A stretch of 64,000 bases of DNA, taken from assembly GCA_038314665.1 (NCBI GenBank), contig GCA_038314665.1_3677.1; one strand, written 5' to 3'. This DNA comes from a phage. The position numbers and the translations under genes were made by a program. Below the pieces are notes generated by a model, which worked only from the letters and a program-made list of their open reading frames with translations, was not told where the DNA came from and made no database searches. Position 1 is the first letter of the stretch. Each line of letters begins with the position of its first letter. Below, one piece after another: positions 3,481 to 48,914 of the stretch.

Positions 3481-3524
3481 TTTATTGTTTTGACACACGT
3501 TCTTGAATTGCTTGAAAGGTTAAA

Positions 3525-3553
3525 TTGACAATGCATCATAATCATGGTAAAAT
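3525..3553 (+). promoter_or_regulatory. sigma70-like promoter with extended -10 (TTGACA-N17-TGgTAAAAT)
   Basis: -35 TTGACA 3525-3530, 17-nt spacer, -10 TAAAAT 3548-3553 preceded by TGG. Confidence 0.55.
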
Positions 3554-3596
3554 ACACAAATATGGTGCACAACATGACTAATAAGGATGCTATAAA

Positions 3597-8104: not shown

Positions 8105-9108
8105 TGGCAGAGTACAGACGTAGAACATGGCGATTATTGTTTGGTCGTCCTGTAGAGCACGGTGGAAAATCAAAAACCAATATTCCGAAATCTGTTGAAA
8201 AGAAAGGTGAGAGTGATTCTGGAGTCTATGAGATTAGCTCAGACACAGGCGCTGCCAACATAGAGTTCGACATACAAAAGGATAATACAAAAGAGCCAAA
8301 CAAAGGTTATGTGACAGTTTACAACCTGTCTGACGATACAGTTAACTATTTGGATATGCATCAGGCTGATGCCCTTGCAGTTATGTTTGAAGCTGGCTAT
8401 GATAATGAGAACCAGTTGATATTCTCCGGAACTGTGGAGTTTGTTGAAGACAGATGGGAAGGTCCGACCAGAAAAACTAAGTTCATCTTTGGGGATGGCA
8501 CTGAGAACATCATTAAGTGCCAAAGCACAAGATCGTATCAGAAAGGCACACCTCTGAACTCTGTGCTTAATGACCTACTGAAGGATATGAACTTGCCAAA
8601 GGGTAGGGTTGTTGGTTTTGGAAACCAGACTTTGCAATACTCTATGGCTTTCTCTGGAAACACTGCAGAGAACCTCCGCAGGTTTGCAAGGCTGACCAAC
8701 TCAACATTCAGCGTTCAGGATGGGGCTTTGTATTGGACCAAGGTTGGAAAAAGGTTCAAGGACTCTGTGTTTGAAATAAGTGCAGAGTCTGGGATGCACG
8801 GATCTCCTACCCCTAAAAACCCAGAACCTGCTAAAAAACGAAAAGCTAAAGCTGCTGCCAAAGGTGGTTCGACATCTAAAAAGAAAAAGAAAAACCCGAG
8901 AGAGGATGTTGGCCTTACTGTAACCACATGCCTTAACGGGGCCATTCTTCCAGAATCCACCATTTACCTTAAAAGCAGGCAATACACAGGTTTCTATAAG
9001 GTGATCACGGTGCATCATAAAGGTACCATAGAAGGTGGTGATTACACTACAGAGCTTGGCCTTGGGGAAACAGTGGGTGGAGTTGTTGACAAAACTGAGG
9101 AGGTATAA
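8104..9108 (+). CDS. hypothetical baseplate protein (possible hub component) with Lys-rich segment
   Basis: 334-aa ORF with start overlapping upstream stop; contains PAKKRKAKAAAKGGSTSKKKKK basic stretch. Confidence 0.3.
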   Translation: MAEYRRRTWRLLFGRPVEHGGKSKTNIPKSVEKKGESDSGVYEISSDTGAANIEFDIQKDNTKEPNKGYVTVYNLSDDTVNYLDMHQADALAVMFEAGYDNENQLIFSGTVEFVEDRWEGPTRKTKFIFGDGTENIIKCQSTRSYQKGTPLNSVLNDLLKDMNLPKGRVVGFGNQTLQYSMAFSGNTAENLRRFARLTNSTFSVQDGALYWTKVGKRFKDSVFEISAESGMHGSPTPKNPEPAKKRKAKAAAKGGSTSKKKKKNPREDVGLTVTTCLNGAILPESTIYLKSRQYTGFYKVITVHHKGTIEGGDYTTELGLGETVGGVVDKTEEV

Positions 9109-35400: not shown

Positions 35401-38086
35401 TGACCCTTATATCATCATGACTGCACTGAGATCAAACATGGATGGGACATCCATGTCCATGCAAATTCCGGTAACAAACGGATACAAACGTGTTGTGATG
35501 ATCATTAAGTGCGACCTGATAGGTAAACAAGTTCTTGCAGAAAACGGGACATCCACACATCCTTTTGAGATCGCTCTACACTATCAGTTTGCTGACTCAC
35601 CTTTTGCAGGGGATAAGAGAATATCTGATACAGACGCACAGCGTTGTAAGAAAGTATTGTTGGGTGCAGGTTGGTGGTGGTATGAGTTTGATTTAACAGA
35701 TAAATTCACCGACACGTCTAAAGTTGTAACAGGACTTCGTCTAGACCTTGGCGAGAACATGCACAAAGCTGTTTGTGATGGCACCTATGGTGACCCTACA
35801 ATATACCTAAAATATGTTTCTTTTGAGCATCCGGAAGATGTTGTCTACGGTCCAAAACTGAGATTGTTTGGCAGCTGGATTGCAAAAGATAGGGTAGGTA
35901 TGGGTAAGAAGGTAAGAGGGTTCTTGGTTGATGCAGGAACAGAAGACATGCTGGTTAATGCAGTATGGCCTGAATTACCTGGGACTCAGTGGGACAACTC
36001 AGCCAAATCTGTAAACTGGTTTAACATTCATAGGGCCATGTGGACCACTAACTGCTACTTGTGGAGAGAGCTTAACGATCAGGCCTTTGGCTTCAGCGAT
36101 GGTAGAAGGATGGCGATCATTTGCTGGACAACACTGCAAAGATGTTATGACCATAACTATGAGATTGGAGGCAGGGAATGGAAAAATATCAGGGACAGAA
36201 TCATAACCAATTTTGCAGACGACAACGGTGGCGGAGCACATAACTTTGGCACAAGCCGACTCATCCATTTGAACGGATCCTCAGCCTACAAGAAAGAAGG
36301 ATACTCTGGGTCCATGATTGAGTGGGGTCTGGTAAAAGATGCTCGTGTGTTGATGGGTCAGCAACTTGCTGCTGCAATAGGGCCGAACGCAGTACAATCT
36401 GTTAAACCAGCGTGGTTCGATATCCCATTATGGTCATCTGGAACACCAGGAACTGCTGCAATCAACCCTACCACTGGGGATTTGGAAATCTCCTGGGAAG
36501 ACTTGAAGCAGGTCGGTGGTTGGGACAAAACAGGGTATCAGGTTCAGTGGTGGAGAGCTGACGGATCTTTAGCCGCTGATGAGTTTGTTAAGGACAATTT
36601 CTACACCATGTCCTCTGCAAAAGCACAGGAATTGTTCGGTCAGGCAACTCCGTCAACGATCACCATGTCTATGTGCTGTAAAGACAACAGGACTGGAGCT
36701 TTGGGGCCAAGGGTTGCTAAGGTTTTCTCAGGTATTAAATGGAATCCCTCTGTTCAAAGTGTTTCATGGAAGCAAATAGGTGATAACAAGCTGCTAGTTA
36801 CCCCCGCCTGTCAGTTCAACGCAACTCTTAACGTTGATCCTGCTGCTGCGGCAAACTCAGCTAAAGCTTCTGACTTCTCTGTGTCTAACACTGCTATGGC
36901 AGATGTGAGGAAGATTGACACGCTGAACGCCAGAATTACCTGTAAAAACACTTATGGCACATTCCAGATCATCAACAACTTCACAGATGCTGATTCTAAG
37001 GTAGTGAGGACAGCAAGCCAGACTCTGAGTTTAGGAACTCTGGCCTATGCAGCCCTGATCACTGAACAGTCGGCAACACTCCAAGGAGGTGGTGTAGGCA
37101 AGTCTATTACAACACCTGTGTGGAAGCCAAATGAGTGGGTTGTGTTTGATTTGACTGTGGACTTCTCTAGTGATAATAACTGGACATGGGTAAGGGATTG
37201 CTTGTCACAACTGATGGGTGGTCCAAGCTCCGTTAGTGATAGCCACGACTCCACTGACCCGAGTGTGTTTCAGGTGGGTAAAACTCACCCGGAGACTGGA
37301 GCAACTTTGCCTGACAGGAAGTATGCTTTGGTTTGCATCTCTAACGGCAAGGCAGATGTCACATTCTCAGGAACACACACTTATAACGGTACATATAACT
37401 TCTCAAGGAAGTATAGTCTTAAGGCAGGGAACATTATAGATGAGGTTGGTCCGTTATATAACCCTGGTAACGGTATAGGTATTGTTGGCGGTTGGTTGCA
37501 AATGCAAGAGCCATCCATAACACCTTCTAATGTTCCTGGCATTATCAAAAAGTGGAAGAGTAATAACGAAACTGTTGCAACAGTCGATCCTAAGACTGGC
37601 AAGGTGACTTTTAAAGCACCCGGTAACGTAGAGATTACCTTCATGGTTATTGACGATGCAGGAACAAAAAGGTCAACAACGTCATTTACTGTTAAACAGA
37701 TGACCCCTCAGTGGTTTATTTGGGAAGGAAATCCTCTTGACGGGGCCTACCCTAGACCTTCAGGAACGTCTAATATGAGGGTATTTACTGGTCCGGTCAT
37801 GGACAATCCGACCACAACCACCAACCCTGCATTTTTTGGTGCTTACATACCTGAAATTATTGGCCTACCAAGGAACCAGATACAACTGCTTTTAGGAACA
37901 GGTGTTGATGGTCTGGCTACTTTTGGGTACAGTGACAACATTGATGCAGCCAGAAGCTCTGGTTGGATTGGATTTAAGTTCCAGTGGAACCCTGGTGGTA
38001 GAACATTAGGCCTCGCAAGTATAGGTGTTATGCTGCCTGGCAACCAGCAATACCATCTCGAAGCTTATACAAACTTCCCTAGTTAA
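32459..38086 (+). CDS. giant virion/fibre-like protein with Ig-like (Big_2-type) domain near C-terminus
   Basis: 1875-aa uninterrupted ORF with GGAGAA RBS; Ig-like segment NETVATVDPKTGKVTFKAPGNVEITFMVIDDAGTKRSTTSFTVK; last gene of the plus-strand structural block. Confidence 0.5.
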   Translation: MLPIPLLKLGRHFLDKRGGIKELAVLSYPIDNSDGTSNTVSYVNSLAILFDDGQLNITGYNRFGECRTGDLDTINYPNEAAWNVDHVWRADRAFVIRTFDNKFFYIGCTAGLIGSEAAGGNDVCVREWTPLPEQIVTGLHLDTHPERLVEVMGGVNNTVWVIAAPEADGMLHLYGSGNNTYGSLHVDKNQHATPVKIGETSESPETGPWKNPRINCEVHDNSVIFGGPNGFWIAGYDFLRNNSKNALVYPAEHVTLDQFKGIPVGETWKGFMCGPNGAIIATERMHKPDDQQLVNVFYGQDVWGDDTWRSLNITYTHEVIMSRGYGTSGIFFNNGTKQYRGFSRNLCNDIGAQSANNNPRANFIHYRALATAKFVEQTEPVSWTESVYFQGIHREGFLGTFCVVNGKLWWSGIPRGSFSGSNNLFGGRLNSQGFTEIPENWYKNVPVDSWGIEDIFDVNGVSNASNIYIGDTVKMKLKPQPEGATFIIDKIELVNAAGTVVTDANYQFSTNWNHGGANEVVVTQYNRNINRRGLYSIKITYHDKHGTGRTYTTRTLNWNTIVPAYPSDGKWHTVGRNKQFHINDTVYFGLNGTQPAVEGDTSYMVRLHRMDAGSVTYDVTQEIYDQRRATYDNIVKTQALWEFNPNGKGGKMLQVNEQNGTSLTVHEHPDPWPDPGKPHPGARTLKVVSHDAGYFGIRWEATVRYADGTTNNIGITLGGTSEDNSLKIAYTPRGISIDNMDVVRNGYGDVNVKVTLGEHLGGERIIMYAFDHDPRTNGTYANQAWSYLINAPEPNTKEFYYGMKRDVCKKTGTHDWIAICVKDERTAWDEPVNRWFIGIPTRSDKYVAEYIVCMGGTNLNLCWNEDANKYSDYDYMRDISCNQWFSQSTGYPPRQARVNPAIFTDTQVFLTKQANEVQTFKNKYDPNKWFYNCYGAFFWGPGELPGGGSCLNEATYASDYIMGQVKKYKIIPGPETLGNAVDPYIIMTALRSNMDGTSMSMQIPVTNGYKRVVMIIKCDLIGKQVLAENGTSTHPFEIALHYQFADSPFAGDKRISDTDAQRCKKVLLGAGWWWYEFDLTDKFTDTSKVVTGLRLDLGENMHKAVCDGTYGDPTIYLKYVSFEHPEDVVYGPKLRLFGSWIAKDRVGMGKKVRGFLVDAGTEDMLVNAVWPELPGTQWDNSAKSVNWFNIHRAMWTTNCYLWRELNDQAFGFSDGRRMAIICWTTLQRCYDHNYEIGGREWKNIRDRIITNFADDNGGGAHNFGTSRLIHLNGSSAYKKEGYSGSMIEWGLVKDARVLMGQQLAAAIGPNAVQSVKPAWFDIPLWSSGTPGTAAINPTTGDLEISWEDLKQVGGWDKTGYQVQWWRADGSLAADEFVKDNFYTMSSAKAQELFGQATPSTITMSMCCKDNRTGALGPRVAKVFSGIKWNPSVQSVSWKQIGDNKLLVTPACQFNATLNVDPAAAANSAKASDFSVSNTAMADVRKIDTLNARITCKNTYGTFQIINNFTDADSKVVRTASQTLSLGTLAYAALITEQSATLQGGGVGKSITTPVWKPNEWVVFDLTVDFSSDNNWTWVRDCLSQLMGGPSSVSDSHDSTDPSVFQVGKTHPETGATLPDRKYALVCISNGKADVTFSGTHTYNGTYNFSRKYSLKAGNIIDEVGPLYNPGNGIGIVGGWLQMQEPSITPSNVPGIIKKWKSNNETVATVDPKTGKVTFKAPGNVEITFMVIDDAGTKRSTTSFTVKQMTPQWFIWEGNPLDGAYPRPSGTSNMRVFTGPVMDNPTTTTNPAFFGAYIPEIIGLPRNQIQLLLGTGVDGLATFGYSDNIDAARSSGWIGFKFQWNPGGRTLGLASIGVMLPGNQQYHLEAYTNFPS

Positions 38087-38094
38087 CAGGAGGC

Positions 38095-38130
38095 AAATAA
38101 AAAAGGGGCCGTTTGGCCCCTTTCTTTTTA
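38095..38130. terminator. bidirectional rho-independent terminator between convergent genes
   Basis: AGGGGCC-GTTT-GGCCCCT hairpin flanked by an A-run upstream and T-run downstream. Confidence 0.8.
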
Positions 38131-38133
38131 TAA

Positions 38134-38334
38134 TTAGTAATATTCCCAACACGACCCATCTTCAGACGGCTGGACACGCCTACCTTCATGATCGACATAG
38201 GTGTAACCACAGCCTTCACAGATAACAGGTGCCGCGTAACCTTCCTTCCACTGGTCTTCTGTGATCAGTCCTTTCAGATCTCCGCAGTCACGACCAAACA
38301 ACTCTTCAGAACAATCTTTGCAAAAATCAGCCAT
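38134..38334 (-). CDS. small Cys4 zinc-ribbon-like protein
   Basis: 66 aa with CxxC (FCKDC) and CxxC (CEGC) pairs. Confidence 0.45.
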   Translation of the reverse strand: MADFCKDCSEELFGRDCGDLKGLITEDQWKEGYAAPVICEGCGYTYVDHEGRRVQPSEDGSCWEYY

Positions 38335-38337
38335 TTC

Positions 38338-38784
38338 TCAGTCCTCGCATTTAACAAATTTTTCTACAGATCCACCAAGCACAGCTTGCTGTTTTATGGC
38401 ACTTTCTTCATCATAGTGGATAGACTTATGTTCCGTACCTCCAAACTTACCTGTGTGGAAGGTGTGCACCCAAATCTCTTTAGGAAGGGATTTATTCTCT
38501 TCCTCCACCAACTCCCACATACCCCACAAGTGATCTGTGATATCTTTGATGAAATATCCCTCTCCTAGGTTTGTATTCACACTATAGGCCGATTCGTGAT
38601 TTCCGCAAATATAACGGAAGGCAGTGTACTCTTTTCCTGGTGTGAAGTGGGTATCCATTAGTATAGCTGTTAAAGAATAAGGGTCTCGAAAGCCCAAGAA
38701 CTTTAGTTTAACAATTTCGACATTTACATCTGCAAGATTGTCCATGACGATCTCCTCTGTTTGGTTGGTGAGATAATCATACAT
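38338..38784 (-). CDS. phosphoesterase-like protein (partial calcineurin-like motif GNHE)
   Basis: 148 aa containing ICGNHES, reminiscent of metallophosphoesterase motif; other canonical motifs not evident. Confidence 0.35.
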   Translation of the reverse strand: MYDYLTNQTEEIVMDNLADVNVEIVKLKFLGFRDPYSLTAILMDTHFTPGKEYTAFRYICGNHESAYSVNTNLGEGYFIKDITDHLWGMWELVEEENKSLPKEIWVHTFHTGKFGGTEHKSIHYDEESAIKQQAVLGGSVEKFVKCED

Positions 38785-38909
38785 AGATCTGATGTTAGGG
38801 TCAAGCTTAATTTTAAACTATTTTGGAGAGGTATTTTGTTCAGGAGGGTAATCACATAGGATAGGGCAATTTATGAAGGCACAGGCCTCTTTTGAGGCCT
38901 TAAAATCGA

Positions 38910-39293
38910 TTATGACACTTTGACGTAGCGCTCCGACAGAGCTGGAAAGCCAAAAGCAGTACCTATACTACCGTATGCTACCCACCATTGAAGTTCATCG
39001 TGACACCATTTTCCGATCAGGAAGGTGCTGGGGTAGCGGGTCAGTATTTTGGCATAAGCTTTAGGGTCTGCATCCTCTGGGATAATGATGCTTGGAACAT
39101 CTTTGTTATGACCGCAGCAGCAGTTTAGAGTTTTCAGTCCTGCCGCCCATAGACTTATGATAGGCTTAGCCATGCACTTATCAAGGCACACACGTTTTTT
39201 GCCGTCTCGAAGTTTTTTAGGCACATCAACGATAACATTTGGATGCTTGGCACCTTTCACTTTCCAATTATAGGATTTACACTTGCACATCAT
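38910..39293 (-). CDS. hypothetical Cys-rich protein
   Basis: 127 aa with CKCK and NCCCGH clusters; GGAG RBS on minus strand. Confidence 0.4.
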   Translation of the reverse strand: MMCKCKSYNWKVKGAKHPNVIVDVPKKLRDGKKRVCLDKCMAKPIISLWAAGLKTLNCCCGHNKDVPSIIIPEDADPKAYAKILTRYPSTFLIGKWCHDELQWWVAYGSIGTAFGFPALSERYVKVS

Positions 39294-39324
39294 TTAATCA
39301 GTCTCCATCTAGAAAGCAATACTT

Positions 39325-39495
39325 TACTTAAAATCTTTGTCACCTATTACGATTGCACGAATCCACTCATTGTGATGTTTAATGGCGGTAAGGTGCAACA
39401 TAATGCAGCGATTGTCATTACTAAACACGGTACGGTAAGCTTTAGCAGCACCATGATATAACTTCCACATCAGGTAATGATATCTTCGCCTCATA
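39325..39495 (-). CDS. small hypothetical protein (56 aa, not in six-frame track)
   Basis: Translated by hand from minus strand: ATG at 39495 four nt after the HAD gene stop, GGAG RBS, TAA at 39325-39327; fills a 200-nt gap. Confidence 0.3.
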
Positions 39496-39499
39496 GCTC

Positions 39500-39970
39500 T
39501 TACTCCGGTTCAGGATCTGGGTAATCTTCAATAATAAAGGGCCATCCGTTCCGCTTAGCCTCCGACTTATACTCAATCTCCTTCATTGCAAACTCTAACT
39601 GATTCTTAGCCGGAATACATGCCGGAGAATCATCAATCCAGATATCTGGGTAGATATCAAACTGCGCCAGATAGGCTGCCTTCTGAATACCCCCAGTATA
39701 AAACACTCCAACATCAAGCTCCTTGCGCCAATATTCAATGTCCACGTTGTCTTGAGTGATGAACCGAGAAGTCACAAGATAGACTGTCCACCCTTCCTTC
39801 TTCAGGTCCTTAATCAGACGGGAGAAGATGAAAGGGCTCGCATTAAACGTTCCATCAAAGTCAATGGCAATGATATGTGTGCCGTGGCGAGTCTCATATG
39901 GATTGCTCGTGGTAAGATTGCTATAGTTAAAAGGTACTTCTTCCCCGCAGTAGCTATAGTCCATATTCAC
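39500..39970 (-). CDS. HAD-superfamily phosphatase (5'-nucleotidase-like)
   Basis: 156 aa with HAD motif I IAIDFDGT, motif II-like VTSR, and acidic IWIDDSP motif. Confidence 0.55.
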   Translation of the reverse strand: MNMDYSYCGEEVPFNYSNLTTSNPYETRHGTHIIAIDFDGTFNASPFIFSRLIKDLKKEGWTVYLVTSRFITQDNVDIEYWRKELDVGVFYTGGIQKAAYLAQFDIYPDIWIDDSPACIPAKNQLEFAMKEIEYKSEAKRNGWPFIIEDYPDPEPE

Positions 39971-40242
39971 ACCTTCTCGTTGATAAATTTACGGGCGGTT
40001 TGGTGAGTTGTTTCTGCTGTCTTCAGAATGATATTGATTTTGTTGTCAAGATCATTCATCTCAGCAGTTAATTCAGGAATCTCTCCAGCATGCATGGTGA
40101 AATCATACATGGACATGCCTAGAATCTCATTGATGCGGCGGTTGCATTCTGCAGCACGCTGGTTCATTTTCCAAGCTAACACCAAAGCCTCCTGCGTAGC
40201 CTCTAGTGCAAAATCTAATACGTCGGCTTCTTCTTTCGTCAT
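39967..40242 (-). CDS. hypothetical protein
   Basis: 91-aa ORF overlapping neighbour by 4 nt. Confidence 0.4.
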   Translation of the reverse strand: MTKEEADVLDFALEATQEALVLAWKMNQRAAECNRRINEILGMSMYDFTMHAGEIPELTAEMNDLDNKINIILKTAETTHQTARKFINEKV

Positions 40243-40300
40243 CTCAGTCTCTCCTGTTGTATTGTTGGTAGGTGTATGAATACCTTATAACTAACCTTTT

Positions 40301-40867
40301 TTATTCAAACTGCAATAGTAAGTCCACTACCGCGCTAGGTCTGTCGACAAATTCCCCAGGTCCACATGCCCACAGAGGGTATCCGTCCACATACCGCCAA
40401 ATCCAACCTGCAGTGTGTAGCTCAAGCAGGGCAGTACCGTCCTTACTGTCAACCACCCTTTCCCACAGTGTTGGGCAGCGAAGCTTGAGAATCGGATCAC
40501 CCCCCTTATACCCATCCATGTAGATACCCATTGCAAAATTCAGCATCATCTTTTTGTGCACTGATCTCTTATTGAGAGTGCTCATCACTTCCTCTTTGTG
40601 AATATTTGTAAGCTTCTCCCTGGCTACCCGCAGATCGTTGCAACCATTGTTCAGCAGATCTTCCAGACACTTGATCCGGAGGTCGTGAATGTCTTTGTCG
40701 TGTACCGTTGGCACAGGGTCGTAGCGGTATAGCACTGTTGATACAAGGTTGCTCGGGTGTGGGTCTGACAGCAACCCATAACCCCAATACTCTTCTGTAT
40801 CTGAAAGGACAAGACATCCAATGTCTCTGTCAAGCTTTCCTGTGTTGTAAGCCACATTGACCGCCAT
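40301..40867 (-). CDS. hypothetical protein
   Basis: 188-aa ORF, no recognisable motif. Confidence 0.45.
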   Translation of the reverse strand: MAVNVAYNTGKLDRDIGCLVLSDTEEYWGYGLLSDPHPSNLVSTVLYRYDPVPTVHDKDIHDLRIKCLEDLLNNGCNDLRVAREKLTNIHKEEVMSTLNKRSVHKKMMLNFAMGIYMDGYKGGDPILKLRCPTLWERVVDSKDGTALLELHTAGWIWRYVDGYPLWACGPGEFVDRPSAVVDLLLQFE

Positions 40868-40869
40868 GA

Positions 40870-41115
40870 CTATAGTTCCACTAGCAAAGTGCTTTCAAAG
40901 TGCCGTTCATGCAGACCGCTGTAAGGGACCACTTCCACAACACCATCACGGACATACGGGGCCATCATAGTGGTATACTCTCCAAACGGGTTGGTATTGT
41001 CACTAACCACAACCACCTTCTGCCCTTCCTTGGCAGAGTGCCAAATAGATCTACACTTCATCAGGTGTTCGAGAGCTCCAGGTAAAATTTTGTTACGTTC
41101 TTTACGGGTCTTCAT
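40870..41115 (-). CDS. hypothetical protein
   Basis: 81-aa ORF, coupled to neighbours. Confidence 0.4.
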   Translation of the reverse strand: MKTRKERNKILPGALEHLMKCRSIWHSAKEGQKVVVVSDNTNPFGEYTTMMAPYVRDGVVEVVPYSGLHERHFESTLLVEL

Positions 41116-41561
41116 AACAGATATAGCTCCTTATGAAAGTGGTCTTTTAATTTCTCACTGAGAAACTTCTTGATACCTTCCTCTAAAGTGTTTTCGATGT
41201 AGTCCAGCTTAACTGCTTCGATGGACATATCATAGATTGCCAGCTCTAAGCTGTCAAGTCCCATCATAGCATGAACCATAAGATTTTCATCTTCAGATAC
41301 ATTCAGGGGACTTCCTATAACATCTGGAGGCAGAATAGTTTCCCAATTATTCTGGGTGGTAGTTCTCCCGCCATCTACTTTACGGCGCAGTTCGAATGTG
41401 TTCTTAGTGTAGAACACTTCATAAGAAACGATACGACTGTCACTCTCATAATAAACGAAGTTCAGGTAGGAGCCTAGCCGCAGTCGGCAAACTTCCACCC
41501 CAAACCATTGTTTCTTATAAGAATTCAGGCTAATGCTGTCGCATTCACGTTTGCTCAACAC
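41112..41561 (-). CDS. hypothetical protein
   Basis: 149-aa ORF, no motif. Confidence 0.45.
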   Translation of the reverse strand: MLSKRECDSISLNSYKKQWFGVEVCRLRLGSYLNFVYYESDSRIVSYEVFYTKNTFELRRKVDGGRTTTQNNWETILPPDVIGSPLNVSEDENLMVHAMMGLDSLELAIYDMSIEAVKLDYIENTLEEGIKKFLSEKLKDHFHKELYLL

Positions 41562-41577
41562 GGCTATCTCCTTTTTG

Positions 41578-41811
41578 TTAATCTTCGTAAATCAGGATTT
41601 CTGCTTTAGGTTTTCGTGCTTTCAGGTCCAGCTCTATCCAGTGCACCATAGCTGTTTCAAGAAAAACAGCTTGGATGCATCCGTCCTCAGCGTGCCCCAC
41701 CAACATAACAAGATCTTCACATTCGTCATCTGCATCACGAACATACAGAATCTCTCCAGATTCAAAGTCTTTCACAACCTGATTGCTGGATAATTTACGA
41801 ATTTTTGCCAT
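41578..41811 (-). CDS. small paralogue family A, member 4
   Basis: 77 aa; shares G(E/T)(I/V)(L/V)..V and C-terminal (E/K)I.I(L/Y) features with the three upstream 87-aa ORFs. Confidence 0.45.
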   Translation of the reverse strand: MAKIRKLSSNQVVKDFESGEILYVRDADDECEDLVMLVGHAEDGCIQAVFLETAMVHWIELDLKARKPKAEILIYED

Positions 41812-41812
41812 A

Positions 41813-42076
41813 TCAGAAACCCTCTAAAAAGCTCTTGTAGAAAACAATCTCAGTATCCACACCAGTCACGATCTTGTCGTTCCTGATTTCGTCGGTAAGA
41901 TAGGTGTCAAAACGCAGAACCTGTGTGGTGTTGTCACACATCCACTCAGCTGTGACCATTGCGAAAATCTTAGCATCTTCATTGTCTGGTGTGAATGTTA
42001 CCACCTCACCGCACTTAAACTTTTCGATAGGTTGAGTGTTGGCTTTCGGTTCTGCGATAGTGATTTTTGTGGTCAT
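41813..42076 (-). CDS. small paralogue family A, member 3
   Basis: 87 aa; CGEVVTF and TGVDTEIVFY segments alignable with neighbours. Confidence 0.5.
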   Translation of the reverse strand: MTTKITIAEPKANTQPIEKFKCGEVVTFTPDNEDAKIFAMVTAEWMCDNTTQVLRFDTYLTDEIRNDKIVTGVDTEIVFYKSFLEGF

Positions 42077-42339
42077 TATTCTCCTCCTTCTTTTGAATAG
42101 CTTGTCTCTCCAAGGATGGTAATTTTGGTGTCAAGCTCTGTAACTTTCATGTTTGGCGGCAGATCGTACAACTCATTATTTTCTAAATCGAAACCCCACA
42201 CACAATGTTCTCCTGTTTTGACAATCATAACTATGTTTTGAATGCCGTCTCCGTCGCAACTTACCACGGTCCCACACGGAAAACTGTCTGCACGCTTTTT
42301 GTTCTTCACCTTAGAATTGAATACAATGCTAGTAGCCAT
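42076..42339 (-). CDS. small paralogue family A, member 2
   Basis: 87 aa; MAT..F.S..K.KK N-terminus, CGTVV and VTELDTKITILGE shared with member 1. Confidence 0.5.
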   Translation of the reverse strand: MATSIVFNSKVKNKKRADSFPCGTVVSCDGDGIQNIVMIVKTGEHCVWGFDLENNELYDLPPNMKVTELDTKITILGETSYSKEGGE

Positions 42340-42602
42340 TATTGTTCCTCCACCATAACTTCGCCAAGAATTTCTATGCAGGCATCCATTTCTGTAACAA
42401 CCGAACTGTGAGGTAGTTCTACAAACACCTTTCTGAACAGGTCAAATACCCCAACATATATGTTTGCAGGATGTGATTTTACAACAAGTGCTGTATTCAC
42501 ATCCCCAAGTTCATCAACAAACATCACCACAGTGCCTGGAGCTACTGAGGACAGATACTTCTTAGTTTTACGGTTTGATGCAAATTTTAACTCTGTTGCC
42601 AT
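42339..42602 (-). CDS. small paralogue family A, member 1
   Basis: 87 aa; PGTVV and VTEMDACIEILGE; 1-nt overlap with member 2. Confidence 0.5.
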   Translation of the reverse strand: MATELKFASNRKTKKYLSSVAPGTVVMFVDELGDVNTALVVKSHPANIYVGVFDLFRKVFVELPHSSVVTEMDACIEILGEVMVEEQ

Positions 42603-42617
42603 AAATAACCTCCTCTC

Positions 42618-44099
42618 TTACTTAGCGTACTCGATTAATTCCACAGTTTTCCCAAAGCTCGGGATATAATTTTTATTATACCCATCAGTGAGGACCCATA
42701 GAGTATCGTACTTTTTCCACTTGTTGTCAATAGCCTTTTGTTCAAAGTTATGCTCAAAGTATAGGTCGGTCAGGACGATGACATCTTTTGCATTCGGTAT
42801 GTTGGCATCCAGATACTCGAACACGCAAGCAGCTGTTGTTCCCCATGTTGAGTGGACCTCATAGTTGATTATCTCGTCTATGTTGCCACGAGTGTATACT
42901 TTAACCTCTCCAACCTCAGTTGACCAACAGAACATTGTAACCTTAAACTCTTTATACAGATTGCACAATCCGGTGATTTCATTGAACATTTTCTTTAAAG
43001 TTCTTTGAGAGATCGAGCCAGAAACGTCTAAAGCCACCACAATATCTATAGTGTTTTCCGGATTACGACCAGGAACAATAACGTGCTGGTTCTTGTTTAT
43101 AGCCCCAACTTTTCGCATTGTGCTGGTCAAAGACCCAGATCGGCGACCAGGTTTTCTGTAGGTCAGTTCGGCCTTTCTTTTAGACAACATGCGTTGCTTA
43201 ATGATGTCTATATAATTGATTACGGGCTTACCTCTGTTCTTGACAAACTCGCGCACCGCCTCAGGGCAACGACCTCCGGAAGCTTGCATTGCTGCCTCCA
43301 GCATGTCACCAGAGTCCTGCATGGCCTGATCTTTATCAGATTGGCTGATTACAGGTTGTGGCTGATCATACCCCATAGCCTTTCCAAGATTATCACTGGT
43401 GCCACCATTCCCACTCATGTGATCATCGGTTTGTCGCTTATCGCCTTGAGAGTTCTCACCTTTACCGCTCTTACTTTTACCGTTATTCTGATCTCTTTGC
43501 TTATCAAGAACTGCATAGACGTTCTCAGCAATCCATCCATGAAACTTCATGTCGCAGTAGCAGCTGGCTAAGAAGCCAAAAGGCTTACCTTTCACGAACG
43601 TAGTGCTTTTCCCCTTCGGGAAGAAAACACAAGGAGGTTTGCTAAAGTCAACCACAAGGCCTGTGTTGATAACGTGATCACAAGCAATATTGAACAGTTC
43701 CGGCTCAAAGCTTTTACCACGGACCAGGTGATCACAGATAATATGCCCCACCTCATGTGACAAAAGAAAGGCCACCTCTTTCACAGATTTGGGGGAATAG
43801 AAAACCTCAGCCATCTCAAACTGCTCGTCAGTTAGAGAAGCCTTAAGAATAGCCCTGCGTTCGTCAGCCAACCCCACAATGAACTCAGGACTGTAATAGA
43901 TGCGTTTATGGTCGGTTGCCATGGTGGAGCACCATGTGTGGTTTTCTACGAACTGCAACCCTGACAGTAGTGTGCCATAAAAAGGCAGCTTTTCAAGAAG
44001 ATACATACGTGCAGCTTGCAACATTCTCAGGGCATCATCTTTCTGTGAGGTAATGATTTCTGAACTTCTGCTATCCATTAAAACTCCAGAAGGGGCCAT
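42618..44099 (-). CDS. VWA-domain protein with N-terminal HExxH metallopeptidase-like domain
   Basis: 493 aa; HEVGH zinc-binding motif near N-terminus, long Gly/Ser/Asp/Lys-rich low-complexity linker, C-terminal MIDAS motif DVSGS. Confidence 0.65.
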   Translation of the reverse strand: MAPSGVLMDSRSSEIITSQKDDALRMLQAARMYLLEKLPFYGTLLSGLQFVENHTWCSTMATDHKRIYYSPEFIVGLADERRAILKASLTDEQFEMAEVFYSPKSVKEVAFLLSHEVGHIICDHLVRGKSFEPELFNIACDHVINTGLVVDFSKPPCVFFPKGKSTTFVKGKPFGFLASCYCDMKFHGWIAENVYAVLDKQRDQNNGKSKSGKGENSQGDKRQTDDHMSGNGGTSDNLGKAMGYDQPQPVISQSDKDQAMQDSGDMLEAAMQASGGRCPEAVREFVKNRGKPVINYIDIIKQRMLSKRKAELTYRKPGRRSGSLTSTMRKVGAINKNQHVIVPGRNPENTIDIVVALDVSGSISQRTLKKMFNEITGLCNLYKEFKVTMFCWSTEVGEVKVYTRGNIDEIINYEVHSTWGTTAACVFEYLDANIPNAKDVIVLTDLYFEHNFEQKAIDNKWKKYDTLWVLTDGYNKNYIPSFGKTVELIEYAK

Positions 44100-44111
44100 T
44101 GGCCCCTGTCA

Positions 44112-45155
44112 TTATTTAACGTGTTTGAAAATACCTGCCAACTCGGTCATTGTCATGCGAGTGGTCTTCATAAGGTCTGTCATAGCTTTCTCCATAATTG
44201 GAGATACTACCATAAAGTTTCCTTTAGTGAAACCTTTATTCCAGTCGGTCACCAACAGGGGTTTAAGTCCAGCTCCAAGACGTTCACCAGTTAAAGCACA
44301 GCATTTGCGAATATACGAACTCTTAAATTGGCTGAACGACAGATCAACTTTCATACCTGCATCGTAGAACGTTTGACAATAGAAAGTGTAAGCCTTAGCA
44401 ATCTCAACATCATCAGGCAGTGCAGGAACCTCTTCTGCAATCCCCTCTTCGACCTCCTGAGGCTCTTTTTCCTCTTCAGAGTTCTGTTCTTCAACTTCTT
44501 CTGTCACAGTCTCGTTTACGATGTCTGAAATGTGTTTGTTGGCTGCACGATCAGCCATGAAATTTTTAAAGTCCTGCATTGGTGACATATCTTCTTCCTC
44601 TTCGTCAAAGAGTGCCAGTTTATCCTCTTCCGTTCCATATTGCAAGATGAAATCTTCAAAAGTATAATCACCTTTCAATTTCTCCATACGCTCTTCGCTC
44701 AGGTGGAGCATCATCTGCTGGACAATTTTTCGATCAGTTTCGTCTTTAATCAAGACTGCAGTCTTTTTATCTACCAGACAGTCCTTTAGAGAGTTGCATC
44801 TCAATCCCACCACACAACAGTTATCAACCGCATAAGGACCTTCATCATCTATCCGCTCCAGAGATGGGTAGAAAGGATTTCCCAGCCCGTTTTCATCTGT
44901 GTGCATGTCAAAAGGTATAAGGGTATAGTCGCATACTCCATCTCCTAAAAGTTTTTTACCAAATAGGAGGTATTCTTCCCATGACAGGTCGAACTCTATA
45001 TCTCGTTTCCGTGCATTATTCTGTTTGCGTCTATATTTTTTGAGCAGGCGCTCTAACTCTTCTGGTGTATAATATTTTTCAAGATTCATGAGTTGTCTCT
45101 CGTGCTCTGTAAGTGAAGAAATCGTATCAATTGTCTCAACAGATGTCAACATCAA
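44112..45155 (-). CDS. hypothetical protein with internally duplicated degenerate HNH/AP2-like motif and poly-acidic linker
   Basis: 347 aa; N-terminal DLSWEEY...PSLERID...YAVDNCCVV...CN..K echoed near the C-terminus (DLSFSQF...PLLVTDWNKGFTKGNFMVV); central EEEED/EEVEEQNSEEEKE run. Confidence 0.4.
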   Translation of the reverse strand: MMLTSVETIDTISSLTEHERQLMNLEKYYTPEELERLLKKYRRKQNNARKRDIEFDLSWEEYLLFGKKLLGDGVCDYTLIPFDMHTDENGLGNPFYPSLERIDDEGPYAVDNCCVVGLRCNSLKDCLVDKKTAVLIKDETDRKIVQQMMLHLSEERMEKLKGDYTFEDFILQYGTEEDKLALFDEEEEDMSPMQDFKNFMADRAANKHISDIVNETVTEEVEEQNSEEEKEPQEVEEGIAEEVPALPDDVEIAKAYTFYCQTFYDAGMKVDLSFSQFKSSYIRKCCALTGERLGAGLKPLLVTDWNKGFTKGNFMVVSPIMEKAMTDLMKTTRMTMTELAGIFKHVK

Positions 45156-45162
45156 AAATGTG

Positions 45163-45191
45163 TTGACTTTACTCTAACTCCATAATATAGT
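45163..45191 (+). promoter_or_regulatory. sigma70-like promoter (TTGACT-N17-TATAGT) in divergent intergenic region
   Basis: -35 TTGACT 45163-45168, 17-nt spacer, -10 TATAGT 45186-45191, upstream of 45232 ORF. Confidence 0.5.
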
Positions 45192-45231
45192 GCACCCATT
45201 CGAAAGAAAACTAACATAGGAGCACTTACTT

Positions 45232-46131
45232 ATGGCAAATCTTAACAGTTTTAGTACGCGGTGGAAACAGGACATAACAACCAATCTTTCAGCTGGGGAC
45301 ATCCTTTCTGCAATTTACGAGGCTTTAGATGATAAAGCTACTTCAAAAGCGGTTTGTACCAACCCACTAATTCCTGTAGTGATGAAGGTTATTGAGCGTA
45401 GATTGGTATCTGGGTCTGATAAGTGGACATATTTAGATAATGAAGGACACACCTATTCCAATGGGTATGTCGATATAAAAGTAGAATACGCGGTATCATA
45501 CCGCCGAAGCGGTTCTGTGACTTTCAACTTTTCTGGAGGTTTCAGATCTCTGGCAACTTCACCTTTTGTTTCCTCAGAAGAGAAGTATGAGCTGCCATTT
45601 CTTTGGATGATGGCTAACGCGACAGGAAAAACCCCCGTTAGCATCCGAGTAAAATACAATTACAACGGATCTAGTAAGATCTATGCCGAAAGTGTCTCAG
45701 CAAGTTTTTATTTTGTGATGGGGGATGGAATCCTCAAACATATAAAGATGTGCGATATGCATGATGTTATAAATGAAGTGACTGATAAGAATGTTCTAGT
45801 GAAAGACCTCAACAATTTTTATACACCCGGAGACTATTACGTCAACCGTCCACTGTGCATCTTTAATGCCGCACACCCTCTAGGTGAGTATTTGATCGCC
45901 AATAGCGATATTGCCAATAACCGCTTCGAGGTAGCAAGAGTTCAGAATGAGGTATTGACATCTTGCAAGAGCGGTGATAAGTTTACCGAAGAAGAGATGG
46001 GTGTTTTAGAAATGATGGGATATAAGTGTAGCCTTTGGGTAGATGAGGTGTTTAATGATTGCATCTATGGACAGGATATTCACCCACTAAAGAAGTATAC
46101 TGATTCCAGTTTAATTTACGCGGAGATTTGA
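45232..46131 (+). CDS. hypothetical early protein
   Basis: 299-aa ORF with AGGAG RBS. Confidence 0.5.
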   Translation: MANLNSFSTRWKQDITTNLSAGDILSAIYEALDDKATSKAVCTNPLIPVVMKVIERRLVSGSDKWTYLDNEGHTYSNGYVDIKVEYAVSYRRSGSVTFNFSGGFRSLATSPFVSSEEKYELPFLWMMANATGKTPVSIRVKYNYNGSSKIYAESVSASFYFVMGDGILKHIKMCDMHDVINEVTDKNVLVKDLNNFYTPGDYYVNRPLCIFNAAHPLGEYLIANSDIANNRFEVARVQNEVLTSCKSGDKFTEEEMGVLEMMGYKCSLWVDEVFNDCIYGQDIHPLKKYTDSSLIYAEI

Positions 46132-47460: not shown

Positions 47461-47730
47461 ATGTTATACCAGCAATATGAACTTCGTGCAGAAAAAGAGT
47501 TAAATTTTGACAAAGATATTCACAGATATTATTATGGGAAAGTTAGAGGGCAAGCAAGAAAGTGTACTCCAACACTCTTTTATGCCAGCAGACGACTAGC
47601 GCCAGAAGAGGCAACAGCAGAAAGGGTTGCGTACAACTGGAGAGTCACGTATGATATTGACAGATCCGATGTGATATCTGTTTTGGAAAACTTTGAAAAC
47701 ACTTACACACAAGTAGAGGACTTTTACTAA
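47461..47730 (+). CDS. hypothetical protein
   Basis: 89-aa ORF with AAGGAG RBS. Confidence 0.45.
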   Translation: MLYQQYELRAEKELNFDKDIHRYYYGKVRGQARKCTPTLFYASRRLAPEEATAERVAYNWRVTYDIDRSDVISVLENFENTYTQVEDFY

Positions 47731-48914
47731 TGTCAAGAAACGTATTTGAAAGTGGTCAAATCACTGTCCGTGAGTTGCCAGCTATCATTCAGTTTGCCCA
47801 GCGTCATAACCGATCTGTCCTGATTTTAGGACCAATGGGCGTGGGAAAGAGCCAAGTGATGAAGCAGATCGCCGATAATATGTTCGGTGAGCGAGATGAT
47901 AACTTGGTTGACGTGCGACTGTCAGATAAAGATCCTGCCGACTTATCTGGGCTACCTATCCCTGTAGAAGCGGATGGAACTACACGTACAGTATTTGCAA
48001 TTCCAGAATTTTGGCCTGCGGATCCTGACTGGAGCGGAATTATCTTTCTGGATGAGCTCACTCATGCAGATAACTACCTGCAAAAGGTTGCAATGCAAAT
48101 TATGCTCGACCACAAGTGCGGTACCTATGCATTCCCTAAGGGTTCTGTTTTTGTGGCTGCTGGTAACCGTTCTACAGATGGTGCGGTTCTTTCGGCGCTC
48201 GAAGCCCCTCTGGCTAACCGTTTTATCATTGTAGAAGTTACAAGCAATGCAGAGGTGTTTATTGAGGACTACGCATTCCTTAATGGGGTGCACTCCTCTG
48301 TAATTGGATATCTGAAAAGAGTTCCATCAGCTATCGATAATTATGAGGCCATGGCTGAGATTAATTGTCCATCTTTTGCCACACCACGATCTTGGGTTGC
48401 TGCATCTGATATCTTGCACGATTTTGACAGCGGTATTATTTCTGACGCTATGGCCCGTGTTCTTCTGCAAGGTGCTATCGGTCACACTGCAGCGGTAGAG
48501 ATCTGGACTTACCACACCAAGAAACGCAACTTACCGGAAATCGGTCGGATTATGGCAGGAGGTTGCAAAGAATACGTAGGTCCTAAACAGCCGGACATCT
48601 TGTGGATTCTTGGATCTGAAGGTTGTATCGCTATTCGTAATATGATGGAAAATGCAAGTATCTCCGACGAAGATCTTGTTAGCTGTGTGGCAAACTTCCT
48701 CGATTTCCTTTGGGAAAACTTCAAGGACGAGAACCGAGATTTTGTATTCTCAGTCTTTATGGCGATGATGAAACCTAATGCCTTAGGAAATGCCTTGCTT
48801 ATCGGTAAAGGTCGTGACAAGATCGTTGCTCAGCTGATCAAAGCATACCCAAACCTGATGAAGATTGTAAAGGAGTTTGGTGAAGAGTTTAGCGCCATTT
48901 TGGCTAAAGCTTAA
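47730..48914 (+). CDS. MoxR-like AAA+ ATPase (CobS-like)
   Basis: 394 aa; Walker A GPMGVGKS, Walker B IIFLDELTHAD, single AAA module of MoxR/AAA_5 size. Confidence 0.65.
   Translation: MSRNVFESGQITVRELPAIIQFAQRHNRSVLILGPMGVGKSQVMKQIADNMFGERDDNLVDVRLSDKDPADLSGLPIPVEADGTTRTVFAIPEFWPADPDWSGIIFLDELTHADNYLQKVAMQIMLDHKCGTYAFPKGSVFVAAGNRSTDGAVLSALEAPLANRFIIVEVTSNAEVFIEDYAFLNGVHSSVIGYLKRVPSAIDNYEAMAEINCPSFATPRSWVAASDILHDFDSGIISDAMARVLLQGAIGHTAAVEIWTYHTKKRNLPEIGRIMAGGCKEYVGPKQPDILWILGSEGCIAIRNMMENASISDEDLVSCVANFLDFLWENFKDENRDFVFSVFMAMMKPNALGNALLIGKGRDKIVAQLIKAYPNLMKIVKEFGEEFSAILAKA

Follow-up and report, generated by a model that had tools for sequence, protein, structure and literature searches.

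A leftward transcription unit, "genes 11-26", was described in phage rV5 by Kropinski et al. (2013, Virol J 10:76), together with its promoters P010/P011 and terminators t026/t027, and rV5 gp11 was named there as a homologue of T4 Srd. The sequence analysed here (the window, a stretch of 64,000 nt from contig GCA_038314665.1_3677.1 of assembly GCA_038314665.1) is that of a Vequintavirus, and the block of minus-strand genes beginning at nt 38134 is this already published unit of the rV5-like E. coli phages, not a new one. Block and rV5 unit share gene order, P010/P011, P025, t026/t027 and a DNA identity of about 95%, and both are placed between gene 10 and the gene for a large tail fibre with Ig domains (gp27). 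They differ in that the window carries a two-gene paralogue cassette (a+b) in place of a single rV5 gene, so that its array counts 4 copies against 3; the DUF2201 gene is a single ORF in the window but was split into gp12 + gp13 in the 2013 table; and rV5 gene 23 (a 49-aa ORF overlapping gene 22) is missing from the window. We consider it likely that the block, as the Vequintavirus counterpart of rV5 genes 11-26, is an early, accessory operon for interaction with the host.

The ORF list of the window gives 15 consecutive minus-strand ORFs (38134 to 45089/45155), numbered g01 to g15 below, and the same 15 CDSs (bas57_0041-0055) are found in MaxTheCat, the best annotated relative. The tiling ORFs of at least 100 aa in the rest of the window are on the plus strand throughout, and GC skew is negative, between -0.08 and -0.17, in 7/7 of the 1-kb bins covering 38001-45000 and positive in the 57 remaining bins. 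The features of the region, and the ATPase gene discussed with it, are as follows.

38091..38134, both strands: two-way intrinsic terminator, aaataaaaaaGGGGCCgtttGGCCCCtttcttttt; rV5 t026/t027 (Table S4)
38134..38334, minus: g01, 66 aa, CxxC...CxxC; phrog_2210, 1.9e-37
38338..38745, minus: g02, 135 aa (148 aa from the upstream ATG 38784), variable slot 2; phrog_15992, phrog_30425, phrog_3955
38776..38804, minus: internal sigma-70-like promoter before g02, TTGACC-17-TATGAT, 10/12; counterpart of rV5 P025 (Table S4)
38910..39290, minus: g03, 126 aa, Cys-rich; phrog_12958, 9e-89; 98% conserved within the genus
39324..39494, minus: g04, 56 aa; annotated in relatives, 86-95% conserved
39500..39964, minus: g05, 154 aa, HAD-like by conserved motifs (DxDxT, T, K, DD)
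39967..40242, minus: g06, 91 aa; phrog_12604, 3.7e-63; other matches sub-threshold and of coiled-coil type only
40301..40867, minus: g07, 188 aa, genus-restricted ORFan; by tblastn only in 116 Vequintavirus records, 95-100% identity
40870..41115, minus: g08, 81 aa; phrog_4868
41112..41561, minus: g09, 149 aa; family directly after DUF2201 in sister genera, aligned across 6 genera
41578..41811, minus: g10, 77 aa, doubtful fourth paralogue; own family, phrog_12046
41813..42076, minus: g11, 87 aa, paralogue c; 99-100% conserved in the genus
42076..42602, minus: g12 and g13, paralogues b and a, 87 aa each, variable slot 1; related by phmmer
42618..44078, minus: g14, DUF2201 protein of N4 gp25 type, N-terminal HExxH zinc metallopeptidase and C-terminal VWA domain with complete MIDAS
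44091..44107, minus: GC-rich hairpin between the Srd-like and DUF2201 genes, GGGGCCaauGGCCCC, -18 kcal/mol, z = -3.05
44112..45089, minus: g15, 325-aa Srd-like protein, Srd/EndoVII-like N-terminal module, acidic linker and weaker second module
45121..45149, minus: block promoter, TTGACA-17-TACGAT with TG extension (extended -10), 10/12; rV5 P011 (Table S4)
45163..45191, plus: promoter of the rightward early unit, TTGACT-17-TATAGT, 10/12; rV5 P010 (Table S4)
47730..48914, plus: AAA+ ATPase, 394 aa, annotated MoxR, outside the block and 2.6 kb away; presumed partner of the DUF2201 protein

The terminator serves both the tail-fibre gene (plus strand) and the block (minus strand): read on either strand, it folds into a hairpin that leads into a U-tract, with energies of -16.9 kcal/mol (plus) and -19.7 kcal/mol, z = -3.75 (minus). 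At the other end, the -35 boxes of the two divergent sigma-70-type promoters are an inverted repeat of each other. The start of the last gene, g15, is most likely ATG 45089, as annotated in relatives, while the -35 box of g15 itself is downstream of the alternative start, TTG 45155; with g15 starting at 45089, the divergent intergenic region is 45090-45231. The most likely starts of the DUF2201 gene (486 aa), g02, g03 and g05 are 44078, 38745, 39290 and 39964, respectively. The strand switch, bidirectional terminator and divergent promoters reported by the sequence-only reading are thus borne out by ORFs, GC skew, hairpins and promoter boxes, with adjusted coordinates. No clean U-tract was found at the hairpin between g14 and g15, which is absent from rV5 Table S4 and may act in attenuation or stabilise RNA. 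In a PHROGs scan of 14 proteins (all but the 56-aa g04), 14/14 matched a family at E<=1e-32, and the block DNA is matched by 122 phage records at 90-99% identity (megablast), so the ORFs are real genes and not chance.

The sequence-only reading had taken the block for an inverted island, whose variability was to be judged by comparison with related genomes. An island gained by horizontal transfer, mobile or able to invert, and lodged between the tail module and the replication module would fit the orientation of the block, opposite to its neighbours, the genes it has in common with unrelated phages, and two polymorphic spots. Among the shared genes is g01, which has tblastn matches in 836 phage records, FelixO1-like (75-77% identity) and T5-like ones among them, and is, judged by these matches, a small protein widespread among virulent enterobacterial phages; extra genes of FV3 also resemble T-even phage genes. 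However, all of the approximately 118 complete relatives carry the block in synteny, with at least 80% of it covered in 113 of 122 records (90-99% identity), and for this reason the island idea largely fails. The G+C content of the block (0.41-0.47) is that of its flanks, no integrase, recombinase or transposase was found in it by Pfam, NCBIfam or PHROGs, and the only repeats at its edges are short, chance ones. Many megablast matches cross both junctions in one piece, with no inversion polymorphism among the listed records. Furthermore, the head of the block (promoter, Srd-like gene, DUF2201 gene and 149-aa gene) and the divergent promoter are kept in four sister genera (Avunavirus, Seunavirus, a Klebsiella phage lineage and Henunavirus), where promoters scoring 10-11/12 precede the Srd-like gene and the AAA+ ATPase gene lies in the divergent operon. 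Exchange between genomes is confined to two small slots, each <1 kb (slot 1, g12/g13; slot 2, g02). An island is therefore largely refuted and extremely unlikely; what is seen is a fixed transcription unit.

The block content is non-structural and non-replicative, in agreement with the earlier view that it is not morphogenetic. That view also held that none of the proteins could be tied to a characterised function, which was wrong for g15, a recognised T4 Srd homologue, and for the DUF2201 protein, an ATPase partner of N4 gp25 type; an activity is assignable for these 2 of the 15 block proteins only.

The combination of VWA domain and HExxH motif in g14 is upheld by Pfam matches to DUF2201_N (PF13203, 1.3e-27) and DUF2201 (PF09967, 5.5e-11). 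Across 9 phage lineages, with identities as low as 25%, its HExxH and MIDAS residues (H115, E116, H119, D141, D358, S360, S362, T421 and D445) do not vary. The two genes lie together in four phage lineages unrelated to one another: an ATPase gene adjoins the DUF2201 gene in the same orientation in CR9, N4-like EC1-UPM and jumbo phage phAPEC6, and is one gene away from it in KLEP7. Membership of the window's ATPase in the MoxR clade was not confirmed (Pfam AAA_14 is below cut-off); its AAA+ similarity is weak, with PDB matches confined to the Walker A region of Clp ATPases. In cells, AAA+ ATPases are coupled with VWA/MIDAS adaptors in the MoxR-VWA pairs RavA-ViaA, CbbQ-CbbO and NorQ-NorD. The phage proteins resemble these in joining an AAA+ ATPase with a VWA/MIDAS protein, but the phage VWA protein also contains a peptidase and presumably acts on a host protein, not on the cell's own metalloenzyme, and MoxR membership of the phage ATPase is the unconfirmed assignment noted above. 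PMC3893208 is a source for the pairing in cells. Closer counterparts are N4 gp24 and gp25, core genes of N4-like viruses (Wittmann 2020), and the MoxR-vWA-metallopeptidase pair of jumbo phages (Iyer 2021), which have the same DUF2201 architecture, invariant catalytic and metal-site residues and pairing with an AAA+ ATPase. Unlike these, the two genes in the window are on opposite strands, flanking the divergent promoter and 3.6 kb apart, and a Vequintavirinae-specific 149-aa gene (g09) accompanies the peptidase. The 149-aa gene, whose product is a candidate third partner of ATPase and DUF2201 protein, has BLAST matches of 23-31% identity in three sister-genus loci; its AlphaFold model is unusable (pLDDT 48).

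For the jumbo-phage pair, a role in assembly was proposed by analogy with the MoxR-VWA pair of Acidianus two-tailed virus (Iyer et al. 2021, PMC7824862), and on this proposal ATPase and VWA-metallopeptidase would be a virion-assembly chaperone and a maturation protease, and the block would serve morphogenesis. The position of the block beside the tail module, the core status of the pair in N4-like phages and the label 'tail protein' given to g09 in PHROG and GenBank are all consistent with this. The published transposon sequencing of the relative Bas54 argues otherwise. On E. coli K-12, 15/15 orthologues (bas54_0042-0056) tolerate insertions, 14 being non-essential and one giving reduced fitness, and the ATPase, DUF2201 and 149-aa genes take insertions at 91-94% of TA sites, while true structural genes take almost none. 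In the clinical strain CFE311, MoxR mutants (log2FC -7.23, q=0) and DUF2201 mutants (log2FC -2.20, q=0.009) are depleted, and the value for the 149-aa gene (log2FC -2.28, p=0.028, q=0.195) is not significant after correction. Bas54 MoxR is required in CFE311 to overcome the defence system DS-28, and a MoxR knockout is sensitive to cloned DS-28. The ATPase thus becomes essential only in a host carrying DS-28, an anti-defence phenotype that differs from the assembly role proposed for the jumbo-phage pair. In addition, gp11-26 are not listed in the rV5 virion mass spectrometry, and the block promoter is of sigma-70 type, not the T4-late-like motif seen before rV5 structural genes. Taken together, a morphogenetic function is very unlikely. 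The original authors' DS-28 validation covered MoxR and bas54_0140, not DUF2201, and since the depletion of DUF2201 mutants is about 30-fold weaker than that of MoxR mutants, the ATPase may act largely without the DUF2201 protein. Dispensability in Bas54 and the depletion of DUF2201 mutants in CFE311 support the accessory, host-directed part of the earlier host-takeover or counter-defence proposal, though not its 'inverted island'.

The first gene behind the block promoter, g15, has no match in Pfam, and its PHROGs matches are 'decoy of sigma70' (7.9e-15), 'Srd' (2.3e-9) and 'endonuclease VII' (7e-11). In BLASTP against T4 Srd, the N-terminal part matched at E=4e-7 and residues 249-295 at E=0.001, with 24% identity over 143 residues. 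The acidic linker noticed earlier is real, with 24 D/E against 5 K/R in residues 151-215. As with T4 Srd, to which its N-terminal ~130 residues are homologous (PHROG families 4592 and 1400), g15 is an early-type, dispensable gene behind a sigma-70 promoter, but its architecture differs: it has 325 aa against 248 aa, and it carries an acidic linker of 65 residues and a further module with weak similarity. Kropinski et al. suggested that the Srd-like protein is an anti-sigma decoy driving the early-to-late switch, in which case the block would be a core regulatory unit; the PHROG names ('decoy of host sigma70', 'Srd anti-sigma factor') agree with this, as does the position of the gene first behind the strongest-looking early promoter in five genera. 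An essential switch is argued against by the orthologue bas54_0056, which takes insertions at 55/55 TA sites, was classed as non-essential and, when disrupted, left fitness unaltered on K-12 and CFE311 (log2FC -0.08). Moreover, the only experimentally supported activity of T4 Srd, as cited in PMC7430671, is stimulation of RNase E, by which host mRNA decays faster, and the T4 record itself marks the anti-sigma role as 'postulated'. We regard the anti-sigma switch as unlikely, and an accessory, host-directed role remains the preferred reading of the block. In this respect it resembles the early clusters of large virulent phages of the T4 srd-modA-modB-mrh type, which also are runs of small dispensable genes with sigma-70 promoters, mix host-takeover functions with unknowns and show local cassette polymorphism; gene content differs except for Srd, and the timing of the block is predicted only.

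The remaining genes are small. The orthologue of g01, bas54_0042, is non-essential. An N-terminal domain and an optional 45-aa C-terminal module make up g02, which in relatives is replaced, shortened or joined by extra genes, among them a 109-aa gene in 30 records. No match to g03 was found in Pfam, NCBIfam or PADLOC, and none for g07 beyond phrog_12232 in Pfam, PHROGs, NCBIfam or PADLOC. The proposed HAD phosphatase, g05, retains all four HAD motifs (D37, D39, T41, T67, K97, D113 and D114 do not vary among 9 homologues with identities as low as 31%) and has homologues in three sister-genus loci, but has no significant Pfam or PDB profile match. A phosphoesterase-like protein, also proposed, found no support in Pfam, NCBIfam, PHROGs or PADLOC.

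Four tandem paralogues had been described, and three of them (a, b and c) are supported. In slot 1, the two-gene a+b cassette (44 records) alternates with a single 85-aa allele, x (74 records); phmmer relates a to b (2e-10 to 4e-10) and x to both (1e-13 to 1e-17), and g11 aligns with the a/b/x profile over 76 columns (hhalign E=7e-6, probability 84%). The fourth, g10, is not sustained (hhalign E=0.052, probability 1%; phmmer E 0.01-0.04 in a 17-sequence database). Membership of g08 in this family was considered and rejected (hhalign against the paralogue profile, E=0.25). The AlphaFold model of paralogue b (pLDDT 76.5) is all-beta, with a best Foldseek match at E=0.04 to SH3/Tudor/KOW-like barrels.

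The block would thus be a single operon read leftward, with one or more internal promoters. Host sigma-70 RNA polymerase, unmodified, would probably transcribe it early from its near-consensus extended -10 promoter; this timing is predicted from the promoter consensus. The promoter lies back to back with the one that serves the rightward early genes (AAA+ ATPase, rIIA/B, helicase), and transcription would stop at the terminator common to the block and the last tail-fibre gene. The products would be accessory host-interaction proteins, neither structural nor replicative. By analogy with T4 Srd, the two-module g15 would act on a host protein of RNA metabolism or transcription, and the other 13 genes are predicted to be small accessory genes, including a HAD-like protein and three small, putatively beta-barrel paralogues. 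An active-looking zinc metallopeptidase with a VWA/MIDAS domain, g14 would work with the phage AAA+ (MoxR-type) ATPase as its conserved partner: the VWA domain may dock a target on the ATPase, which would remodel it for cleavage. Since the ATPase is needed against DS-28 and mutants in the peptidase gene are also depleted in CFE311, at least one target may be a component of host defence.

The block comprises 15 successive minus-strand ORFs (g01 at the terminator end to g15 at the promoter end, 38134 to 45089/45155), and the long ORFs tiling the rest of the 64-kb window all lie on the plus strand. All seven 1-kb bins at 38–45 kb have a negative GC skew, and the remaining 57 a positive one. The elements that delimit the block are:

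38091–38134, both strands, two-way terminator at the 3' end of the block (aaataaaaaaGGGGCCgtttGGCCCCtttcttttt), a hairpin followed by a U-tract in either direction

45149–45121, minus strand, sigma-70-type promoter of the block, TTGACA-17-TACGAT with a TG extension

45163–45191, plus strand, sigma-70-type divergent promoter, TTGACT-17-TATAGT, back-to-back with the block promoter at the 5' end

The terminator folds at -16.9 kcal/mol on the plus strand and at -19.7 kcal/mol (z = -3.75) on the minus strand. The anatomy described in the sequence-only reading (strand switch, terminator, divergent promoters) is therefore correct by ORF map, GC skew, hairpin and promoter motifs. The promoter consensus suggests that the block is transcribed early; a literature search for a Vequintavirus transcriptome found none. 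For the Srd-like gene (g15), a start at TTG 45155 (347-aa ORF) would fall upstream of its own -35 box, and in relatives the gene is annotated from ATG 45089 (325 aa). For the DUF2201 gene (g14), the most probable start is 44078, in agreement with the N-termini of the sister-genus proteins in the alignment of homologues. The 33-nt gap between these two genes contains a GC-rich hairpin (44091–44107, GGGGCCaauGGCCCC; -18 kcal/mol, z = -3.05) that has no clean U-tract and is not among the terminators listed for rV5; a role in attenuation, RNA processing or RNA stability is conceivable. Scanning the block with Rfam and for tRNAs gave no hits.

A megablast search with nt 38000–45300 matched 122 phage records, 113 of them with at least 80% query coverage at 90–99% identity, essentially all Vequintavirus (rV5-like E. 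coli myoviruses); the rV5-type unit, genes 11–26, gave 100% query coverage at 95–97% identity, both junctions included. The rV5 genome paper (PMC3606486) describes four transcription units, genes 11–26 among them, names gp11 as a probable Srd homologue, and lists promoters P010 and P011, internal promoters P020 and P025, and terminators t026/t027 (Table S4). The promoter and terminator sequences of the window match the divergent P010/P011 and the two-way t026/t027, and the genes follow the rV5 order from the gp27 tail fibre to gene 10, Table S3 of that paper giving the same series of genes between the 1878-aa gp27 and gene 10. The block is the counterpart of this unit, and the feature is therefore already published: strand-switched unit, promoters, terminator and Srd homologue in 2013, and gene dispensability by a transposon screen in 2025. 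Nothing new comes from it as a genome feature. What novelty is left lies only in a presumed connection of the peptidase to anti-defence, a 149-aa protein that may be a third partner, and two cassette polymorphisms. In the 2013 table the DUF2201 gene is split into overlapping genes 12 and 13 (441 aa and 81 aa), and in the window and most relatives it is a single ORF of 486–493 aa; the split is probably a frameshift or a sequencing error in the old record. Sixteen GenBank records (MG0656xx) named 'Campylobacter phage', host Campylobacter jejuni, match nt 38000–45300 at 90–99% identity, the four among the matches listed showing 93–95% identity to the block, and their host assignment or preparation purity looks doubtful.

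The block had been taken for an inverted island, a description that does not fit a fixed unit with conserved synteny, parts of which are retained across the subfamily. Its G+C content (0.41–0.47) equals that of the flanks. No recombinase, integrase or transposase was found in the block with Pfam, NCBIfam or PHROGs, searches for direct or inverted boundary repeats returned only chance matches of 14–19 nt, none at both boundaries, and neither inversion nor presence/absence polymorphism was seen, the orientation being the same in every relative among the matches listed or fetched. The head of the unit is kept in Avunavirus, Seunavirus, a Klebsiella phage lineage and Henunavirus, with a promoter scoring 10–11/12, the Srd-like gene (39–41% identity) and the DUF2201 gene (43–47%), the latter directly followed by a member of the 149-aa (g09) family. 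An AAA+ ATPase gene (43–54% identity) sits in the divergent operon of these genera, and homologues of the HAD-like gene (g05) occur further downstream in three of the four sister-genus loci, where the other block genes were not found. Within the block, g07 is genus-restricted (116 records) and g01 is common to FelixO1-like and T5-like phages (836 records). In the sister-genus loci (L002–L006), a different conserved protein, about 87 aa long, is encoded between the Srd-like gene and DUF2201, at about 8690–8960 in each. Its copies match one another by phmmer at 1e-9 to 1e-25, and no similarity to the 87-aa paralogues of the window, which lie after DUF2201, could be detected. In the unrelated Aeromonas phage vB_AceP_PAc (OP718284, 124 kb), homologues of DUF2201 and the Srd-like protein are encoded at 2587–3948 and 121144–121968, near opposite ends of the linear record; on a circularly permuted genome they would lie side by side, a hint that the pairing extends beyond Vequintavirinae.

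Variability among relatives is present in two polymorphic slots; apart from these, the block is syntenic throughout the genus. The slot directly after DUF2201 is occupied either by a two-gene cassette of paralogues a and b (g13 and g12; 44 records) or by a single allele, x (74 records), which is only 38–41% identical to a or b. The slot around g02 varies in the presence of a C-terminal module and of one or two further genes, among them an optional 109-aa gene (30 records). At these cassette-like slots, phages that are nearly identical elsewhere diverge, so that differences in host range or defence evasion might map there.

Four tandem paralogues had been proposed in this part of the block. Paralogues a and b are clearly related to each other and to x (mutual E-values 1e-10 to 1e-17), and paralogue c (g11) joins them by profile comparison (hhalign E=7e-6); the fourth, the 77-aa g10, does not join (E=0.052 against the a/b/x profile). 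For paralogue b, AlphaFold gives a small beta-barrel (pLDDT 76.5, moderate confidence) resembling generic SH3/Tudor/KOW-like barrels (best E=0.04, TM about 0.5), matches that carry no functional information. The proposed HAD phosphatase, g05, retains its four motifs (D37-x-D39-x-T41, T67, K97, D113-D114) in 9/9 homologues, down to 31% identity. It gave no Pfam match above threshold, also when each homologue was scanned (best PF06189, E=0.08–0.12), nothing in NCBIfam, and no HAD structure with a PDB sequence search or the nine-homologue profile, so that the motifs stand and the assignment by profile or solved structure does not. PDB sequence searches with the Srd-like, DUF2201 and HAD-like proteins returned nothing significant. 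No block protein resembles the phosphoesterase that had been suggested (Pfam, NCBIfam, PHROGs, PADLOC), nor, according to PADLOC, defence-system proteins.

The Srd-like protein g15 matches the PHROG families 'decoy of host sigma70' (phrog_4592, 7.9e-15) and 'Srd anti-sigma factor' (phrog_1400, 2.3e-9) as well as an 'endonuclease VII' family (7e-11). It aligns with T4 Srd by BLASTP at E=4e-7 (24% identity over 143 aa), and residues 30–80 of T4 Srd align a second time, to g15 residues 249–295 (E=0.001). It is longer than T4 Srd (325 aa vs 248 aa), from which it differs in having a second module and an acidic linker (residues 151–215, 24 D/E vs 5 K/R). Of the nuclease-like repeats and acidic linker previously ascribed to it, the linker holds; no nuclease model (HNH, Endonuclease_7) was found in Pfam or NCBIfam even at E<=1, the endonuclease matches are limited to PHROG families so labelled, and the N- and C-terminal parts do not align significantly with each other (z = -0.7), the putative two repeats deriving only from the match of T4 Srd to both halves. 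T4 Srd, the only protein for which this activity is known, binds and stimulates RNase E, speeding host mRNA decay (as cited in PMC7430671), and this is the sole Srd activity with experimental support in the account of Srd given there. Disruption of the Srd-like gene in the Vequintavirus Bas54 had no phenotype (log2FC -0.08, q 1.0 in strain CFE311; 10.1101/2025.11.20.689424).

Several labels propagated among database records ('HNH endonuclease', 'tail protein', 'holin', 'anti-termination', 'polynucleotide kinase') are unsupported and should not be trusted. In many records g14 is labelled 'HNH endonuclease' (phrog_1314) or 'anti-sigma factor', the former a misnomer, as Pfam gives a peptidase-VWA protein; the 149-aa protein appears as 'tail protein' or 'putative holin', and the Srd-like gene as 'anti-termination'. 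None of the labels on these three genes finds support in Pfam, NCBIfam or the transposon data. The first gene of the rightward unit (45232–46131, 299 aa) is widely annotated 'putative alpha 1-3 fucosyltransferase'; it has no Pfam match at E<=0.001, and the label traces to rV5-derived annotation, the 2013 gene table giving no homologue.

The only block protein recognised by Pfam is g14, which had been described as a VWA and HExxH metallopeptidase-like protein and scores above the cut-offs for both DUF2201_N (putative metallopeptidase; 1.3e-27, 97.6 bits vs 23.2) and DUF2201 (VWA-like; 5.5e-11, 43.1 bits vs 26.4). Nine homologues were aligned, drawn from six lineages of Vequintavirinae, one N4-like and one jumbo phage, and Pseudaeromonas phage KLEP7; the HExxH motif (H115, E116, H119) and D141 are invariant among them down to 25% identity, as is the full MIDAS set (D358, S360, S362, T421, D445). 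Because these residues are invariant, both domains look functional. In other phages a DUF2201 gene is found close to an AAA+ ATPase gene: the pair sits side by side and in the same orientation in Certrevirus CR9, N4-like EC1-UPM (gp24/gp25) and jumbo phage phAPEC6, and is separated by one gene in KLEP7. Among N4-like viruses, gp24 and gp25 of N4 belong to the core gene set. In the window, the ATPase gene (394 aa, 47730–48914) lies 3.6 kb from DUF2201, on the opposite strand, across the divergent promoter. Its only Pfam match is AAA_14 (21.4 bits vs a cut-off of 27), its PDB matches (E>=1e-4) are confined to the Walker A region of ClpB/ClpC, and its 'MoxR' label originates from depositors and the literature.

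Experimental data bearing on these genes come from transposon sequencing of Bas54 (HIDEN-SEQ preprint, 10.1101/2025.11.20.689424), in which bas54_0042–0056 are the block orthologues. All 15 tolerate insertions in E. coli K-12, 14 being non-essential and one showing reduced fitness. The resampling table for K-12 vs the clinical strain CFE311 gives the following values.

Depletion of Bas54 insertions, K-12 vs CFE311 (gene; log2FC; q)

AAA+ 'MoxR' ATPase (bas54_0063); -7.23; 0

DUF2201 gene (bas54_0055); -2.20; 0.009

149-aa gene (bas54_0051); -2.28; 0.195

Srd-like gene; -0.08; 1.0

The other 11 block genes range from -1.32 to +0.47, none significant, and the ATPase together with bas54_0140 is required to overcome DS-28 of CFE311 (same preprint). 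The idea of an accessory, host-directed locus is thus reasonable, the support from Bas54 dispensability and CFE311 depletion being indirect. Just upstream of the block, the 1875-aa lateral tail fibre gene (32459–38086) is dispensable in K-12 (Bas54 insertions at 281/336 TA sites) and significantly depleted in CFE311 (log2FC -2.23, q=0), suggesting that the fibre binds a receptor in a host-specific manner. In Extended Data Table 8 of the preprint (supplement 9, sheets S6 and S7), the 'K-12 vs CFE303' table is the same as 'K-12 vs CFE311', with an identical command line and files named 311; since the sheet duplicates CFE311, the CFE303 comparison is missing from the file.

For the jumbo-phage ATPase/DUF2201 pair, Iyer et al. 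(PMC7824862) proposed a role in virion assembly, which is hard to reconcile with both genes being dispensable in Bas54. We infer that DUF2201 serves the ATPase as VWA adaptor and protease, and that counter-defence is at least part of what the pair does; co-depletion of the two genes in a DS-28 host and their conserved pairing in four phage lineages point to a testable counter-defence mechanism of the protease type. The 149-aa protein is a possible third partner. A search for its homologues found only Vequintavirus copies (92–100% identical), the cross-genus alignment as query gained one more lineage, its AlphaFold model has a pLDDT of 48, and its family has no member among the genes that follow DUF2201 in KLEP7 and phAPEC6. 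That the ATPase, DUF2201 and this Vequintavirinae-specific protein form a single ATP-driven anti-defence machine is a speculative and rather unlikely extension of the protease reading. In this scheme the three would be co-expressed from the two sides of a single divergent early promoter. A component of a host defence system, for instance DS-28, would be bound by the VWA domain, unfolded by the ATPase and cleaved by the HExxH domain. Were this so, the N4 gp24/gp25-type pair, widespread among N4-like, jumbo and rV5-like phages, would serve generally as a counter-defence protease and not as an assembly chaperone.
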